Shown: positions 2,228 to 52,010 of the stretch, in pieces
Layout of the letters: every line of letters starts with the position of its first letter
Numbering within the stretch: the stretch's first letter is position 1
DNA from: Candidatus Poribacteria bacterium
GTDB lineage: Bacteria; Poribacteria; WGA-4E; PCPOR2b
Assembly (NCBI GenBank): GCA_965218095.1
Contig: OZ244587.1
Span: 3,168,001 to 3,232,000 of the forward strand
DNA: 64,000 bases
Direction of reading: 5' to 3'
Translations under genes and position numbers: made by a program
Notes under the pieces: model-generated
The model's database searches: none
The model's input: the letters and a program-made list of their open reading frames with translations, nothing else
What the model was told of the DNA's origin: nothing

Positions 2228-4348
2228 TCATTCATCGACAGCGTGAAAAACTCCGACGCATCCCGGGGGGACTTCCACCTTAAAAACTCCGCCGCTCACT
2301 TCGACCGCCTTGTTGTGGATGAGATCCGTCACTTCCTCGATCGCCCAGTCCACCTCCACCGTCGCCCGTCCCATTTCCCCCGCCACGTTCAGCAAAAAGA
2401 TCAGCGAACCCCCTACCTGTGAAAACCGCCGGAACGCCACCAGTCGATCTCCCTCAATAGAAAAAGGCGATCGCATCCCCAGCGCCTCAAGTTGCGGCAG
2501 CAGCAACTCGGGCGGGGCCACCCCACCGAAGCCCGCTGCCAGGGACAGCCCCCACCACATCAGCCGCTTCCCCGGCAGTTCGACCCCGACCACCTCGCCA
2601 TTGAGTGTCGCCATGGCCCGTGCGTCGCCCCGCGGCTCCAGGATGATGTAGTTGCACGGGTAGGTGAGGGGGAAAGGACCGTACTTGGTCTGCAGGACAT
2701 TCTCACCTACGTCGATTTGTTCCTGGGTAATCTTGTCAAAGTCCACTACCCGCACGGTCACCAGATCCGCCAGCCCTTCGGGCGGGTGGAAGCTCCAGTG
2801 GCCCTTGCCCGCAAAGGAGCCGAAGTGGCCCTCCACGAGCAACGATGGTCCCGCCTCGTCCTCCAGGATCTGGCGAATGCGCTCAATCGCTACCTCGTCC
2901 AAGACTGCGAAGTTGGGCAGGTACACCACCCGGTACTGCGACCAGTCCATGACGGGCGTGACCATAGTGCGCGGCACACTGTGCGCCCACAAGGTCTGGT
3001 GCACCCCCTGGAAATCCGCCTTGAACTGCTCGTCCCACTCTCCCATCCAGTAGATCTCGTTGCTGGGCCCGCTGTACCCCAGAGCCAGTTCGGCCGGCGG
3101 GATCTGGAACGGCAAATGTTCCGCAATGCCATTAATCTGCGCGATGGCCTGTTCGATGGCTTTCCAGCGGCCGGTGGGCTCGCCGTCCAGGGAAACCAGG
3201 CTGAGCCCGGGCGCCTCAAAGGTCATGTACTCGGGCCGGTACTCCCAGTAGAGCGCACCGGCCGCACCTTCGATCAGAGCCAACCACAAATAGATCGTGG
3301 ACTCTTCCGGGGTGGTCTGCCTTTCCCGCTGCGACAATCCGCCCACGAAGTTGGAGTAGATCTCCTCGTCCCACCAGCGCCCGTTGCGCCCCACGGCGCG
3401 CGACCACTGGAAGCCGATGCACTCGTTGGCCATTTTGTAGGGGTCGTCGCTGGTGAGCCGGTCGGCCGAGTGGTGCGACAGCCCCCAGCTATCGATTCGC
3501 GCACTGCAGATCTCGTCGCATGCCCGCGGGAACGGGCCGCCGTGTGAGCGTTGCTCGTGGGCGCCGTCCAGTTGATCGATCAGGTCGGCGAGCCAGCCTA
3601 AGTGGTCGGCCATGTTCCAGTGGTGAAACTGCCGGTAGAGCAGCATCTCCACCTGGGCGGCTTTGTGGCGCGGTGCGTCCACGTCCTTCCACGATCTGTA
3701 GCGCCGCAGCAGATGCTCGTTGAGTTCGTCCAGGGTGAAGCGCTGTTTCAGCCAGGTCCTGTACTTTTCAATGGTGTAATCGTTGTAGGGCGGGTATCCG
3801 TCCCCACCTGACCAGGCCCCGGCGAAACTGATTCCGTCCCAGGTGCCCCATATCCCCAAACCCGAGTGGCCCTTGTAGCGCGGCACGATCTCGCGAATAA
3901 AGCGCTCCACGTACTCGCGCCACTTGGGGTGGTCGAAGTTGTGGATCATCGACCCCTGTGGCGCCCAAACGCCGGCCGTAGGATGCTGGATGCTGCCGTC
4001 CGGCCATTCGACCCGCATGTCTGGGTGCTCCTCTATCATCCACTCCGGACACGACATGTGGGTGCCCACCGGGGTATCCAGCCAGACCTTCAAATCGTGC
4101 TTGGCCGCTAGGTCGAGCATCAGGTCGAGGTCATCGAACTCGAATTGTTCAGGCACAGGCTCGGCCCAGTGCCACAGGTAGAAAGTGCGCACGATCTGCA
4201 TCCCGGCGGCGCTGATGCGCGCAAAATCCTCGTCCCAGAACTCGGGCGGCGGCACCGGGGGCCGGTAGTAGGCTACCCCCACCTGGAAGGGGCGTGCTGG
4301 GTCCACGGGAAATTCCTTGGGGTGGCTGCTGAGTTTTGTTTCACTCAT
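2228..4348 (-). CDS. GH42-like beta-galactosidase with trimerization domain
   Basis: GVAYY…FWDEDFARISAAGMQIVR…WAEPVPEQFEFDDLD; C-terminal LPNF/class I GATase-like region. Confidence 0.8.
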   Translation of the reverse strand: MSETKLSSHPKEFPVDPARPFQVGVAYYRPPVPPPEFWDEDFARISAAGMQIVRTFYLWHWAEPVPEQFEFDDLDLMLDLAAKHDLKVWLDTPVGTHMSCPEWMIEEHPDMRVEWPDGSIQHPTAGVWAPQGSMIHNFDHPKWREYVERFIREIVPRYKGHSGLGIWGTWDGISFAGAWSGGDGYPPYNDYTIEKYRTWLKQRFTLDELNEHLLRRYRSWKDVDAPRHKAAQVEMLLYRQFHHWNMADHLGWLADLIDQLDGAHEQRSHGGPFPRACDEICSARIDSWGLSHHSADRLTSDDPYKMANECIGFQWSRAVGRNGRWWDEEIYSNFVGGLSQRERQTTPEESTIYLWLALIEGAAGALYWEYRPEYMTFEAPGLSLVSLDGEPTGRWKAIEQAIAQINGIAEHLPFQIPPAELALGYSGPSNEIYWMGEWDEQFKADFQGVHQTLWAHSVPRTMVTPVMDWSQYRVVYLPNFAVLDEVAIERIRQILEDEAGPSLLVEGHFGSFAGKGHWSFHPPEGLADLVTVRVVDFDKITQEQIDVGENVLQTKYGPFPLTYPCNYIILEPRGDARAMATLNGEVVGVELPGKRLMWWGLSLAAGFGGVAPPELLLPQLEALGMRSPFSIEGDRLVAFRRFSQVGGSLIFLLNVAGEMGRATVEVDWAIEEVTDLIHNKAVEVSGGVFKVEVPPGCVGVFHAVDE

Positions 4349-48337: not shown

Positions 48338-48465
48338 ATTCCCTTCTTCGCTGTAAATATTGGTGAATTATACCTTACCGCCTGAAAACCCGTCAACTGA
48401 AATCCCTGAACCGATTAAACGACGCTTCCGCTTGCAAAAAAATCAAGCCTTTTATAAATTTGGGG

Positions 48466-48494
48466 TTGACAAGGGCAAGTATCTTCTGTAGAAT
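48466..48494 (+). promoter_or_regulatory. sigma70-type promoter
   Basis: TTGACA-17-TAGAAT. Confidence 0.55.
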
Positions 48495-48744
48495 TAGCGT
48501 TGCGCTATACTTTACTTTACCGAATCAATCAATACGAATGAGGGAAAGAGATGTCCCAGGAAAACCATGCCGAGATAGAACAAAGCCCACAAGAAAACAC
48601 ATCCGATACCGACAACACCGTGAGTGCTTCGATTTCTGCGGAAAGTGGAATTATTACGCGCTTATAAGGTTTAGGCTTGCAAGTTTTGTGTAAATTTGAT
48701 ACAATATAGGCATCAAACCCTTATGAATAAAGGAGTTGAGATGA

Positions 48745-49626
48745 ATGAACTTGTTTGATGCTGTAGAACGATTTTCTGACCAAGAGAGTTGTATTAAACA
48801 CTTAGAAACTATCCGCTGGGGTGGCAAACCTGAGTGTCCATATTGCGAAAGTAAAAAGGTTGCACCGAAGAATGAAGCTAGCATAATTGGTCGTTGGAAT
48901 TGCCATACTTGTAAGTCAAGTTTCAATGTGTTACAGGGAACGATATTTCAAGGAACACAGATTCCACTTCAGAAGTGGTTTATGGCTATCCTGTTAATGA
49001 ACGATGCGAAGAAAAGCCTATCAAGTTGTCAAATGGCTCGTCATTTGGACTTAACGCAACCCTCAGCTTGGTTCATGATGAAACGAATCAGGTCTGAGAT
49101 GGGTAGAAAGGGCAAGGTTTTACTGAGAGGAATTATTGAATGCGATGAAACCTACGTGGGCGGTAAGCCCCGACGACGAAAAGACAAGGACGGGAACTTG
49201 CCTCCACCGAGCAAGCGAGGTAGAGGCACGAAGAAAACGCCCGTTATCGGTGCTGTTGAACGGGCTGGGAATGTTGTGGCGCGTGTGGCTACGAGTTTGA
49301 GTCGTAAGGGCGTTTTGGGGTTCATCAAAGGCGTTATTGAGAAGCCGAAGGATTCAGTTCTAATGACAGATGAGTTCTCATCGTATGAGGCGGTTGATGG
49401 GCTCATGCCTCACCATGTCATCAGACACAAGAACTGGCAGTACGTGGACGGTAATACCCACACAAACACGATTGAAGGGTTCTGGTCGCTGGTGAAACGT
49501 GCGTTTCATGGTACACATCACCACTACAAGCATGTTTCGCTCTACATCGCTGAGGCGTGTTACAAGTACAACAACCGGAAGAACCGGAACATCTTCAAGA
49601 AGTTTATCAGGGAATGCTTTGTGTAG
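48745..49626 (+). CDS. IS1595-family transposase, intact
   Basis: CPYC…CHTC zinc finger, ECDETYVGGK, MTDE, HTNTIEGFWSLVKR. Confidence 0.95.
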   Translation: MNLFDAVERFSDQESCIKHLETIRWGGKPECPYCESKKVAPKNEASIIGRWNCHTCKSSFNVLQGTIFQGTQIPLQKWFMAILLMNDAKKSLSSCQMARHLDLTQPSAWFMMKRIRSEMGRKGKVLLRGIIECDETYVGGKPRRRKDKDGNLPPPSKRGRGTKKTPVIGAVERAGNVVARVATSLSRKGVLGFIKGVIEKPKDSVLMTDEFSSYEAVDGLMPHHVIRHKNWQYVDGNTHTNTIEGFWSLVKRAFHGTHHHYKHVSLYIAEACYKYNNRKNRNIFKKFIRECFV

Positions 49627-49664
49627 GGTGGGAAAACCTCTGGAGACTCCATAGAAGGATTAGA

Positions 49665-49859
49665 TTACACTATTTCCAACCTTTTGAAAATGGTTGTAAT
49701 TAGTGTGTAGTCATTTTTAAGTAACTGAATTGCAACTCTTAAATCTTCTACGGTTGCAGTAGAGGTAAATAACCTCTCTTCAATTCGGTGGGTTTTATCA
49801 GCATGTTTTTGTAGATGTTCTTTAACACGTTGAATATCCACCTTCCTTTGTGATGACAT
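49665..49859 (-). CDS. Small helical hypothetical protein (passenger)
   Basis: 64 aa; RBS AAAGGAGG. Confidence 0.65.
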   Translation of the reverse strand: MSSQRKVDIQRVKEHLQKHADKTHRIEERLFTSTATVEDLRVAIQLLKNDYTLITTIFKRLEIV

Positions 49860-49990
49860 AACATCTGCCTCCTTTCTGAGTCATATTTTCAGAGGTTTTC
49901 CCATAAGGGAGTGTCCGGTGGGAGCCGGACACTCTAGCAACAAAATATCAGGGAGTGCTTTGTGTAGCACCCCCTGATATTGCCTAAGAG

Positions 49991-50101
49991 TTATTGCTTA
50001 GGCGTAGCCGTATAAGGACTGCTATACGGCGTTTGATTACCCTTACGTTTAGCGATTTTGAGTACGATAAACGTAAAGGTTTTGCGTATTTTTATAAACA
50101 C
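49991..50101 (-). CDS. Putative 36-aa basic peptide (passenger)
   Basis: RBS AAAGGAGG then GTG; MFIKIRKTFTFIVLKIAKRKGNQTPYSSPYTATPKQ. Confidence 0.4.
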   Translation of the reverse strand: MFIKIRKTFTFIVLKIAKRKGNQTPYSSPYTATPKQ

Positions 50102-50228
50102 GATAATCCCTCCTTTCATTGGAATAAGTCGTGATGCAGAGGGTGTTATCAGCAGTTGTCCGTATATGTGGACTTACAAGCGTGCCGTCTTTACGCCTGT
50201 AAGACTTGATGTATTTGATGCGTGGCAT
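50049..50228 (-). CDS. Putative 59-aa basic protein (passenger)
   Basis: RBS AAAGGAG then ATG; MPRIKYIKSYRRKDGTLVSPHIRTTADN…. Confidence 0.55.
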   Translation of the reverse strand: MPRIKYIKSYRRKDGTLVSPHIRTTADNTLCITTYSNERRDYRVYKNTQNLYVYRTQNR

Positions 50229-50293
50229 GGGGGGTCTCCTTTGCCATGTTGTGGCGGTGGGGGTGCTATAACACCCCCTCGCCTGTTTTATGT

Positions 50294-50734
50294 CTATCTC
50301 ATGTGCAATCTTCTAGCAACATTTCGGAGGGTTGTTTCGGTTTGCCCAAATCGTTCCTCCATTTGGGCATAACGCCCCTCTATACTATCTATTGACTTGA
50401 TGACTGCTACATGAGTTGCAAGGGTAGTTGTCATGTACCTGTCCATTCTCGTTACTGACTGTTGAAAAGAATCAAGTTTCTTGTCAATATCTTCAACAGG
50501 TACGGTTTTCTTCGCAGTTGCATCTCTAGTTTTCAGATTCTCTGCGATGTTGGTAAGCTCTACCCTTCTTAAATTGACGACTTCTTCTTTCAGTTGTTTT
50601 GCTTCATCTCTGAAGTCTATGAAGGACTTTCTGATACTATACAAATCGTCACTACTGGGAATGTGTTTCCAAATGAACTTTCCAGCAGCAATGATAATGA
50701 GTATATCCGCTACTACACTAAGAAAATCACTCAT
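50294..50734 (-). CDS. N-terminal TM plus coiled-coil hypothetical protein (passenger)
   Basis: 146 aa; hydrophobic first 22 residues; RBS AAAGGA. Confidence 0.7.
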   Translation of the reverse strand: MSDFLSVVADILIIIAAGKFIWKHIPSSDDLYSIRKSFIDFRDEAKQLKEEVVNLRRVELTNIAENLKTRDATAKKTVPVEDIDKKLDSFQQSVTRMDRYMTTTLATHVAVIKSIDSIEGRYAQMEERFGQTETTLRNVARRLHMR

Positions 50735-50862
50735 TGGGGTGTCCTTTACTTTGGCGAGGAAAGGTAAAACAAGCCAACGATTTAATAAACTTCAGAATCA
50801 CAGGCTTGTAACACCCCAATAATATCACATATTCAAAGAATCTGCAAGCCAATTATTTATAA

Positions 50863-51168
50863 ATGCGAAATATTATTAGCAACCAACAGATCCAGTCCAT
50901 TGAGATTTCCGATAAGTTCACAAGACAAAAAACGTCGGATGGTTGGTATATTACCTTCCAGCGTCCAGGTAAAGTCACCATTAATCTCACAACAAGTATG
51001 CGGAAAATAGAGGTGCTTCTTATCGAAGAAGACATCATCGAAAACGACGGCACGGATCTAATTATCCTGCGGAAGCACGCTCCTGATGCATATAAATCAA
51101 AAAGATCCGGAGCGCCCCTGGCTCGAAGTCGCGAAGAGCTGTTACAAGGGGGAACGACCGCAGTATAG
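50863..51168 (+). CDS. Hypothetical protein
   Basis: 101-aa ORF with no recognised motif. Confidence 0.45.
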   Translation: MRNIISNQQIQSIEISDKFTRQKTSDGWYITFQRPGKVTINLTTSMRKIEVLLIEEDIIENDGTDLIILRKHAPDAYKSKRSGAPLARSREELLQGGTTAV

Positions 51169-51765: not shown

Positions 51766-51971
51766 ATGTGGGGTGGTTCATTTTACTATGTTATCACAAA
51801 ATAGATAGGAAACCTGCACAGCACCTCAAAAGCCCCATGTAAAACGTGAAACGTAAAACGTAAAAATTTTACGCATTACGTTTTACGCAGTACGCGCCAT
51901 GGATGTTGGGGGCGAATACCTTCTCAACAATTTAGTGATAGTACACCATTCTTTTTTCGTTTGCCTCAAAT

Positions 51972-52010
51972 AAAAAAGCCATGCTGGTACATATCAACAG
52001 CATGGCTTTT
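51972..52010 (-). terminator. groEL intrinsic terminator
   Basis: AAAAGCCATGCTG…CAGCATGGCTTTT hairpin with T tracts. Confidence 0.8.

Follow-up and report, generated by a model that had tools for sequence, protein, structure and literature searches.

A probable passenger-carrying insertion sequence of the IS1595 family with antisense small genes packed between hairpins in a Candidatus Poribacteria genome

What does an insertion sequence (IS) gain or carry when a string of small open reading frames (ORFs), packed between hairpins, stands behind its transposase gene on the opposite strand? This question is raised by an element at positions 48657-50867 of the window, which here means the whole analysed stretch of 64,000 nucleotides from a Candidatus Poribacteria bacterium (assembly GCA_965218095.1, contig OZ244587.1, positions 3,168,001 to 3,232,000 of the forward strand). 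A first-pass annotation, made from the letters alone, had described an IS1595 element with four small minus-strand ORFs, each with its ribosome binding site (RBS) or start in or next to a stem, and had proposed a mobile, structure-controlled module of small proteins, serving addiction, defence or a cassette system dependent on single-stranded DNA (ssDNA) or RNA structure. Its observations were largely right and its statistics hold; the interpretation as a toxin-like or ssDNA cassette module is partly supported. The element is of a known kind and not a new system. Probably it is a tIS, an insertion sequence with passenger genes, which belongs to the IS1595 family and was active recently, with predicted promoters at both ends, a predicted guard against read-through, putative hairpin terminators or insulators and a cargo of presumably chimeric origin.

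The following features define the element and its borders:

48649-48656, no strand: left copy of the target duplication, AATTATTA, 8 bp, abutting the shared left end
48657-48705, plus strand: terminal inverted repeat of the left end, CGCGCTTATAAGGTTTAGGCTTGCAAG..., containing a predicted promoter directed inwards at 48677-48705 (repeat search, shared ends of nine copies, promoter scan)
48745-49626, plus strand: intact IS1595-family DDE transposase, 293 amino acids (aa) (Pfam)
50842-50867, no strand: right terminal inverted repeat, reverse complement CGCATTTATAAATAATTGGCTTGCAG (repeat search, shared ends)
50868-50875, no strand: right copy of the target duplication, AAATATTA, one base different from the left copy

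The transposase, correctly recognised at first pass, matches DDE_Tnp_IS1595 (PF12762, 1.6e-34, residues 127-276) and Zn_ribbon_IS1595 (PF12760, 3.6e-08, residues 12-57). A search of its own 6.35-Mb genome returned nine full-length matches to the interval 48674-50850, which had first been taken for the whole element. The element is real, its ends however lie 17 bp further out on either side, at 48657 and 50867 (2211 bp), because the outer 17 bp are common to all nine copies and the target duplications abut them. Over 2177 bp seven copies are identical to the window copy and two differ by one G>A; over the full 2211 bp the nine copies represent two distinct sequences. The duplications are exact and 8 bp long at six of the nine copies, exact and 9 bp long at two, and 8 bp long with one mismatch at the window copy; a length of about 8 bp is typical of the IS1595 family. 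The long, imperfect terminal inverted repeats are near mirror images, with 50-nt arms that are 70% complementary (48652-48701 with 50823-50872). The ends of the element read CGCGCTTATAAGG and CGCATTTATAAAT, and more distant relatives begin GGCAATGATAT or CGCAATTAG. DDE transposase with zinc ribbon, terminal inverted repeats and duplications of about 8 bp thus place the element in the IS1595 family, and genes without a role in transposition, lying within the inverted repeats and mobilised alongside the transposase, make it a tIS.

Sponge metagenome contigs from two other DNA runs, X5 and X12, link 48651 to 50871 and omit 2219 bp, which are the 2211 bp of the element and 8 bp. Deletion of the element and one duplication copy in silico yields an open host ORF of 132 codons. 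From the empty site, the restored host ORF and the copies with their duplications it follows that the cargo was co-mobilised, as had been presupposed for a mobile module, and that the insertion is recent. Each of the nine copies has the same cargo of 1241 bp, and the element, cargo included, moves as a single unit. As a side observation, the host ORF split by the insertion (48551-48656 and 50876-51168) is uninterrupted in the X5 and X12 contigs. The RNA runs containing the element are from sponge metagenome. In contigs of the runs X6 and X7, from RNA libraries of one study, 25 and 23 of 30 bins are covered while the flanks are uncovered; these contigs are unstranded, possibly DNA-derived and come from a multi-copy element, and can show neither transcription nor its strand or level.

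Passengers are not peculiar to this copy. Relatives of the transposase were detected in 84 out of 151 genomes from the order and, at 50-62% identity, also in metagenome-assembled genomes of Chloroflexota, Latescibacterota and proteobacteria. Clear inverted repeats together with at least 400 bp beyond the transposase gene were found at 38 of 80 related loci, where automatic inverted-repeat calls of low score were set aside and detection failed for many single-copy relatives; relatives without cargo, with 68-230 bp after the transposase gene, exist too. The wider-family cargo comprises 61 distinct ORFs of at least 70 aa. Frameshifted transposase remainders (L067, L122) and near-duplicates (two of L078, one of L118) were omitted, and among the 56 ORFs scanned 22 have a Pfam family at E <= 1e-5 and 34 have none. 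DNA methyltransferases account for nine of the 56, several of them fused to or beside HNH, PD-(D/E)XK or HSDR_N nucleases; furthermore P63C, Bro-N, KilA-N, DUF3800, SNase and nested transposases are present. Since passengers occur across the related loci, their carriage is normal in this branch of the IS1595 family. The first-pass statement that such a module is not described therefore went too far, as passages of two papers deal with passenger-carrying IS, the IS1595 family included (PMC7986276, PMC4611040).

Two further observations concern individual relatives. One Latescibacterota genome contains at least 15 loci (L077-L106) of a 58-62% transposase relative with cargo of differing length, namely minus-strand methyltransferase-HNH fusions near the right end, an HSDR_N nuclease-like gene and, in the shortest form, a truncated HNH remnant. 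At L021 (genome G024, about 2500-3880) a long repeat array with a period of about 400-500 bp and no obvious right end lies 3' of a 66% transposase relative.

What, then, does the window element carry? Its cargo ORFs, named after their length in codons, are listed here from the right end inwards, together with a replaceable segment that touches two of them:

50294-50734, minus strand: o146, protein with an N-terminal transmembrane helix and three long helices, first gene behind the right-end promoter (relatives P0001 and P0002, AF2 model)
50049-50228, minus strand: o59, a chimera, residues 1-27 belonging to a small basic-protein family and residues 28-59 not (alignment A1)
49979-50147, no strand: replaceable segment of 169 bp, comprising hairpins H2 and H1 (listed below), o36 and the non-family half of o59 (joint 49978->50148; P0005 fits the variant)
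49991-50101, minus strand: o36, GTG start, within a 42-aa ORF (50119-49991), strong RBS AAAGGAGGG in a stem, unsupported as a gene
49665-49859, minus strand: o64, 64-aa helical-hairpin protein (relatives P0012, 89%, and P0013, 44%; AF2 model)

All four ORFs exist, and an AAAGGA(G/GG) motif stands 6-8 nt upstream of each start, as had been read at first pass. Two of them, o146 and o64, are genuine protein genes. Relatives of o146 in a set of 5.8 billion proteins are P0001 (99% identity) and P0002 (67%), and compared with a 99%-alike variant from other runs the gene shows three synonymous changes and one non-synonymous change (D88G, the same as in P0001). The AF2 model has a mean pLDDT of 70, with an N-terminal transmembrane helix and three long helices. 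Searches of the 28 other family genomes and of the order's other genomes, 158 in number, did not return the gene, and a metagenome scan gave a single unrelated 45% fragment. The ESM Atlas offered weak leads only, to hypothetical phage proteins (DUF2746, DUF2730; score 0.90, low recognition).

Relatives of o64 with 89% and 44% identity were found by phmmer among 1.84 billion representatives. A profile search of the order added five places in genome G055, two in G045 and one further genome, G033; a weak match in G016 (E = 0.002) was excluded from the alignment. The resulting alignment of six sequences (A4) keeps a clear motif at identities down to 27%. For the AF2 model, a two-helix hairpin with a pLDDT of 82, no match at E <= 0.001 was found in the PDB, and the ESM Atlas gave a weak lead with a score of 0.82.

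The remaining two ORFs are of a different standing. The family of o59 is recognised by the motif FRKDGT.V.PH.RT..DGNPYNN with a basic tail, and has nine members in the large protein set. One of them, P0005, is identical to residues 1-27 of o59 and beyond that family-like, unlike o59. Correspondingly, contigs of the runs X6 and X7 (1038 nt and 1644 nt) contain an otherwise 99%-alike element in which 49979-50147 (169 bp) is swapped for 110 other letters. From P0005 and this variant it follows that o59 of the window is a recombinant remnant, a broken passenger gene. The motif, as FRKDGTYV.P..RTNPDGN..NN, also stands straight behind signal peptides in proteins of 85-88 aa from other sources (P0009, P0011); the IS-borne forms are without signal peptide. 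For o36 no relative exists in any related locus nor, as the 42-aa form, in the set of 5.8 billion proteins. It lies entirely within the replaceable segment and is probably not a gene.

The four small ORFs of the first-pass annotation hold as reading frames; as a gene o36 is unsupported, and o59 belongs to a protein family over residues 1-27 only. One could go further and regard the entire cargo as non-functional filler made of chance ORFs and decaying fragments, considering that o36 is without relatives, that o59 is broken, that no cargo ORF has a known domain and that a search of the order's 158 other genomes did not yield o146. However, o146 has a relative at 67% and a ratio of 3:1 synonymous to non-synonymous changes, the families of o64 and o59 count six (to 27% identity) and nine members, strong RBS motifs precede all ORFs, and the 5' untranslated region (UTR) is kept across elements, which renders filler very improbable.

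How the cargo would be expressed is suggested by the right end, where the following features are found:

50819-50847, minus strand: predicted inward promoter in the right repeat, TTGCAG-17-TATTAT, TG-extended -10 (found by eye, mirrors the left-end promoter)
50811-50822, minus strand: 5' arm of the stem closing the o146 UTR, overlapping the -10 box and the predicted start site at about 50812
50766-50792, no strand: inner right-repeat-like sequence, whose CAAGCC core pairs with GGCTTGT (50803-50809) in the UTR fold (read from the sequence)
50731-50742, minus strand: 3' arm of the same 12-bp stem, AUG included (minimum free energy (MFE) and centroid folds)

At the left end, the promoter scan detected TTGCAA-17-TACAAT with a TG-extended -10 at 48677-48705, likewise directed inwards, and the G055 element has TTGACA-17-TACCAT inside both ends. 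An inward extended -10 promoter in each terminal repeat would mean that the left one drives the transposase and the right one the antisense cargo, with o146 first. If the same promoter indeed stands at both ends, anything placed antisense behind the right end would be expressed. The inner right-repeat-like sequence is the counterpart of the sole right end of a relative in the same genome. Capture of the cargo through one-ended transposition was considered and rejected, as the cargo lies inside this inner sequence and not outside.

The first-pass annotation had placed each RBS or start in or next to an inverted repeat, and the inverted repeats it had pointed to are present (50811-50822 with 50731-50742, 10-12 bp; GATAATCCCTC with GAGGGTGTTATC; and the 14-bp repeat 49629-49642 with 49890-49903). 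The stem CATGG...CCATG, however, has just 5 bp. Accessibility was calculated as unpaired probability of positions -15 to +3 in a context from -80 to +40, with 28 host genes possessing Shine-Dalgarno motifs as reference (mean 0.49, sd 0.15). On this scale the transposase RBS has 0.49, o59 is open (0.55), o64 has 0.30 and o146 0.34, and o36 with 0.22 lies at the 4th percentile of host genes. For o146 the transcript start decides: RBS and AUG have 0.46 when the own start predicted at about 50812 is used, and the value is 0.08 in read-through (from 50900), because the 12-bp stem contains the AUG. Clear occlusion is thus predicted for o146 in read-through only, and none for o59. The caveat given at first pass, that the arm 50811-50820 overlaps the promoter, was justified, since this 5' arm overlaps the -10 box. 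As it lies upstream of the element's own start, the stem should form only in transcripts entering from outside. It would then block o146 translation in read-through transcripts, and insertion downstream of a host promoter would not switch on this first cargo gene. The UTR fold, which has three parts, is retained by L019, the closest relative, and by a remnant of the own genome, where the closing stem differs in part; it precedes three different first genes. A stem that hides the RBS or AUG and uses sequence of the element end, as known from IS200-like guards, is predicted in silico.

In the window element and all the close relatives seen, the right end is followed first by a gene for a small membrane protein: o146 itself, a 125-aa protein in L019, a 67-aa protein in the own-genome relative, an 82-aa protein in the remnant and a 113-aa protein in G055. 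These proteins belong to mutually unrelated families. From the differing membrane first genes and the genes of restriction-modification type in wider relatives, a role in envelope-level defence, exclusion or addiction is possible, and the cargo proteins might act for the element or for the host at the cell envelope.

A stronger version of this idea is that the cargo is a structure-controlled addiction or defence module similar to type I toxin-antitoxin systems, with a membrane toxin held off by RBS occlusion, which keeps the IS in the genome. The constant position of a small membrane protein gene and the RBS of o146, which can be occluded, are in line with it, and so are the restriction-modification-type passengers that are frequent in wider relatives, where nine of the 56 ORFs are DNA methyltransferases, several of them nuclease-linked, as such genes can act in addiction. 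However, o146 has 146 aa with long soluble helices and is no short hydrophobic peptide, strong occlusion is restricted to its read-through transcripts, and the RBS of o59 is open. Furthermore, the Rfam scan revealed no antisense RNA or other family, no useful-level PADLOC match was found, nine copies are stable in one genome while empty sites persist in related populations, and the membrane proteins are unrelated to each other. The toxin-like control suggested at first pass is improbable on these grounds, and an IS200-like read-through guard would fit better.

Why is the cargo so rich in hairpins? The structures concerned are:

49629-49642, no strand: first arm of the 14-bp perfect inverted repeat bracketing o64, closing the MFE fold of 49910-49620 (partner 49890-49903)
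49890-49903, no strand: second arm of the 14-bp perfect inverted repeat (repeat search)
49909-49934, no strand: hairpin H4, preceding the o64 RBS on the minus strand, with a perfect stem of 10 bp (folds)
49944-49981, no strand: hairpin H3, terminator-like on the minus strand, tail TTTTGTTG (repeat search, terminator scan)
49982-50003, no strand: hairpin H2 (folds)
50007-50030, no strand: hairpin H1, terminator-like on the plus strand (terminator scan)
50259-50278, no strand: hairpin GGGGGTG...CACCCCC between the o146 stop and the o59 RBS (window z = -5.2, minus strand)

The statement that most of the non-coding cargo can base-pair proved correct, and the folding is far stronger than in shuffled controls. 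None of 200 dinucleotide shuffles of 49627-50867 reaches an inverted repeat of 14 bp (maximum 12). Perfect hairpins with a stem of at least 7 and a loop of at most 12 number five, in comparison to a shuffle mean of 0.72 (one of 200 shuffles reaches five). The hairpin density is 4.0 per kb within the cargo, and 0.76 per kb in the remaining window. Fold z-scores were calculated for 120-nt windows with 60 dinucleotide shuffles. At 49861-50100 both strands have values between -5.3 and -8.9, at 50221-50340 the minus strand has -5.2, and in the transposase gene and flanks the values mostly range from -2.6 to +1.7. Since the two strands score alike, folding alone cannot tell whether RNA or DNA folds. 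An Rfam scan of 48400-51100 returned one match, at E = 0.7 and far under the gathering score. The four tandem hairpins at 49909-50030, which lie between the convergent units, may act as terminators or insulators that keep antisense transcription out of the transposase gene, and may protect RNA 3' ends.

Several of these hairpins have counterparts elsewhere. H3 is kept in ten related sequences, with 83.6% of the cells paired and 35-45% when the structure is slid. An H2-type hairpin follows H3 in L019, in the own-genome relative and in the remnant, with differing stem sequences, and L019, L020 and the own-genome relative have GC-rich hairpins comparable to H4 ahead of small ORFs on the minus strand. 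Apart from these structures, a 9-bp perfect hairpin TGCCCAAAT...ATTTGGGCA lies at 50343-50369, within the 3' portion of the o146 gene; the fold z-score of the window 50301-50420 is -4.2 on the minus strand. Two long perfect hairpins with stems of 12 bp and 13 bp are located in host DNA about 1 kb downstream of the element (51852-51887 and 51974-52010).

The arrangement of the hairpins relative to the genes suggests how the cargo was put together. Variable ORFs in a conserved scaffold had been named at first pass as support, and among related Poribacteria elements the promoter and 5' UTR of the right end are retained on one side and the hairpin over the transposase stop on the other, with different small genes between. 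In L019 (79% transposase identity) about 135 bp of the right end, with promoter, UTR and ATG, are shared at 89%, and the homology stops at the start codon 50734 of the window. Behind it, L019 has its own membrane protein and a 41-aa ORF and no o64; its transposase stop sits in the loop of a hairpin of H3 type, and one of H2 type comes next. The G055 element has the entire arrangement again: behind the transposase come a convergent o64 relative, a hairpin, a small ORF, a second hairpin, a membrane protein and the promoter-bearing right end. At L145 in this genome two 44-bp hairpin units (ATAATGATTGGCTAyCTG...CAGrTAGCCArTCGCTTAA; about 1735-1780 and 2020-2065), which differ by a compensatory stem change, separate small minus-strand ORFs. 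Relatives of o59 adjoin H3-type hairpins in L050, L052, L056 and L058; in L052 and L056 they also stand beside short transposase 3' remnants and in L058 inside a 67% relative. Short modules, joined to one another at hairpins or next to them, make the cargo region a mosaic.

One of the joints may have left a repeat in the window element:

49605-49626, plus strand: 22-bp direct repeat, its first copy being the genuine transposase 3' end with the stop; the second copy, 49946-49967, differs at one base

The 5' arm of H3 and its loop consist of this second copy. Transposase 3' ends are duplicated in three elements, namely the window element, a decayed relative (G000:C1:5095622-5098868) and L020, with repeats of 22, 28 and 33 bp whose copies differ at 1, 2 and 4 bases and which enclose other genes. 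The simplest origin would be a fusion of two related elements. The second 3' end would then be the scar left when an element bearing o64 was fused to the tail of a related one, this tail consisting of the last 22 bp of a transposase gene, H3, cargo and right end. Such a fusion could arise via a deletion ending inside the second transposase gene, and only products keeping H3 whole may have survived. Fusion with retention of H3 would explain the differing repeat lengths, the base differences and the start of the insert right after the stop.

Two loci of the own genome may be described here. L153 (G000:C1:5095560-5098960) is a decayed relative with a frameshifted transposase of 79% identity. About 1.7 kb of plus-strand cargo lies between its two copies of the transposase 3' end and contains two occurrences of an ORF of 80-odd aa as well as a secreted protein rich in repeats; small ORFs on the minus strand, behind hairpins of H3, H2 and H4 type, come next, and the flanks hold no matching target duplication. 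L154 (G000:C1:2551250-2552900) is a remnant without transposase, with H3 and H2 hairpins and two small minus-strand ORFs. It has two successive right-end units, in each of which a promoter-UTR fold precedes a different small gene.

The mosaic could also be taken to mean that the hairpins are recombination sites of an integron-like, ssDNA- or hairpin-directed cassette system, in which modules are swapped between the promoter end and the stop-codon hairpin. Breakpoints at or beside stems (49626/49627; 49978; 50147/50148; the start codon 50734) speak for it, as do the repetition of the H3 5' arm and loop in three elements, the two hairpin units of G055 with their compensatory change and the different ORFs within a kept frame. 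In particular, breakpoint 49978 recurs with three partners in run contigs, which keeps hairpin-directed recombination in consideration. The joints 49631->49947, 49622->49925, 49619->50734 and 49978->50759 are leads only, as their intervening letters are not known. However, several joints are short-sided (22-42 letters) at 85% likeness and maybe belong to other elements, the sample is small, and no common core motif is shared by H1-H4 and the 50259-50278 hairpin. Illegitimate recombination generally has hot spots at palindromes, and the repeats are accounted for by a fusion of neighbouring elements. The element contains no tyrosine or serine recombinase, its sole enzyme being the DDE transposase, so that the dedicated ssDNA cassette system proposed at first pass would be one without an enzyme. 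It appears quite improbable.

The o64 module can be judged separately from the rest. In G055 and G045 an o64 relative lies convergent to the IS1595 transposase just beyond its stop, and these transposases are 55-56% identical to that of the window (55.6% and 54.7%, tblastn). The recurrence next to the transposase suggests, from gene order, a role linked to the element. That the o64 module is an independent miniature element (MITE) was rejected, for it has no other copies in the own genome or the order. More specifically, o64 might be an accessory or regulator of the IS lineage and not a passenger, either as transposase inhibitor or helper or as a convergent-transcript product damping transposase expression. 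Its relatives stay convergent and within about 100 bp of the transposase stop (five places in G055, two in G045), the remaining cargo differs, the family motif is kept (A4), and no terminator stands between o64 and the transposase 3' end. However, the closest relative L019 does without o64, in the window element o64 sits in an apparently added module, and the modelled structure, a simple helical hairpin, matches nothing informative. Complex prediction of transposase and o64 gave scores of 0.01 and 0.05, no answer for or against. An accessory in this sense is unlikely, though less so than filler, addiction or cassette system.

The reading as a tIS with mirror-image end promoters and a hairpin-bounded cargo has its own difficulties, and the following points weigh against it. 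None of the four cargo ORFs has a match above noise in Pfam, PHROGs or PADLOC that would indicate a cargo function. The right promoter is unlisted by the scan, because its -35 box matches only at 3/6 positions, and the transposase RBS shows no read-through guard, with 0.49 in either context. Promoters and guard are predictions from sequence and folds. The wider-family cargo is oriented in both ways (41 ORFs on the plus and 29 on the minus strand), so that antisense cargo is no family rule. H2, H4 and, on the plus strand, H3 are without a U tail. The covariation of H3 is not significant, as 87 of 500 shuffles reach its score and 202 of 500 its double-change count. Finally, the fusion model alone does not explain three junctions within 33 bp of the stop and needs selection for H3.

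The reading can also be generalised to an IS1595 lineage of sponge symbionts in which the right end is an expression platform, with repeat promoter, guarded UTR and hairpin-bounded slot, where small genes are exchanged at hairpins and an o64-type accessory is kept by the transposase. So far-reaching a scheme is distinctly unlikely.

Passenger-carrying IS blur the boundary between insertion sequence and transposon, and the acquisition and expression of their cargo are poorly understood. The window element offers a compact, testable case, with predicted mirror-image promoters, a stem predicted to silence read-through, a stop-codon hairpin that survived every rearrangement seen and a recurrent helical protein. 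Its activity in an uncultured sponge symbiont (nine copies, empty sites, a split host gene) records ongoing genome change. If it were true that hairpins direct the exchange of modules, this would be cassette shuffling without integrase; if they do not, the element is a tidy but ordinary tIS.

Comparison with known systems sets these features in order. Like type I toxin-antitoxin loci, the element has a gene for a small membrane protein with a start region capable of base-pairing. Type I toxin peptides usually have under 60 aa and are hydrophobic, whereas o146 comprises 146 aa with largely soluble helices and an occlusion that depends on the transcript start; o59, o36 and o64 are basic or helical and lack hydrophobic character. 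With integron cassettes (attC) the element has in common short, mostly promoterless genes proximal to a promoter, imperfect palindromes between them and a content that varies between relatives. In contrast to integrons, neither an integron integrase nor attC core sites are present, the genes lie inside a DDE transposon, and the junction evidence is thin.

Guards against outside transcription belong to the biology of IS10 and IS50, in IS10 under the name 'fold-back inhibition', a phrase for which a literature search returned no paper; a search for a general account of sequestered translation signals in IS gave nothing usable. For IS200, passages of one paper describe a Shine-Dalgarno sequence sequestered in a stem and an end-proximal terminator against impinging transcription (PMC4513863). 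In the window element, too, a stem hides a start region, as the modelled 12-bp stem would cover the o146 AUG only when the transcript starts outside. However, the protected gene is the transposase in IS200 and would be the first passenger gene here, where the transposase is without such a stem.

The closest likeness is to the tIS of the IS1595 family, of which passenger-carrying members were reportedly described by Siguier, Gagnevin and Chandler in 2009 and which form subgroups in ISfinder (ISNwi1, with the end motif ggnnatTAT, ISPna2 and others). A description of antisense, hairpin-packed small-ORF cargo with a recurrent o64 was not found in the literature searched, outside of which the 2009 work lies. 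Shared with these tIS are the DDE_Tnp_IS1595 domain with N-terminal zinc ribbon, terminal inverted repeats, 8-bp duplications and co-moving genes. In contrast to them, the passengers are here small ORFan genes on the opposite strand, behind a predicted promoter in the right repeat and packed between hairpins, and an o64-type gene recurs beside the transposase stop in the Poribacteria lineage. What look like new features are accordingly the predicted mirror promoters, the predicted guarded UTR of a passenger gene, the conserved stop-codon hairpin and the recurrent partner o64.

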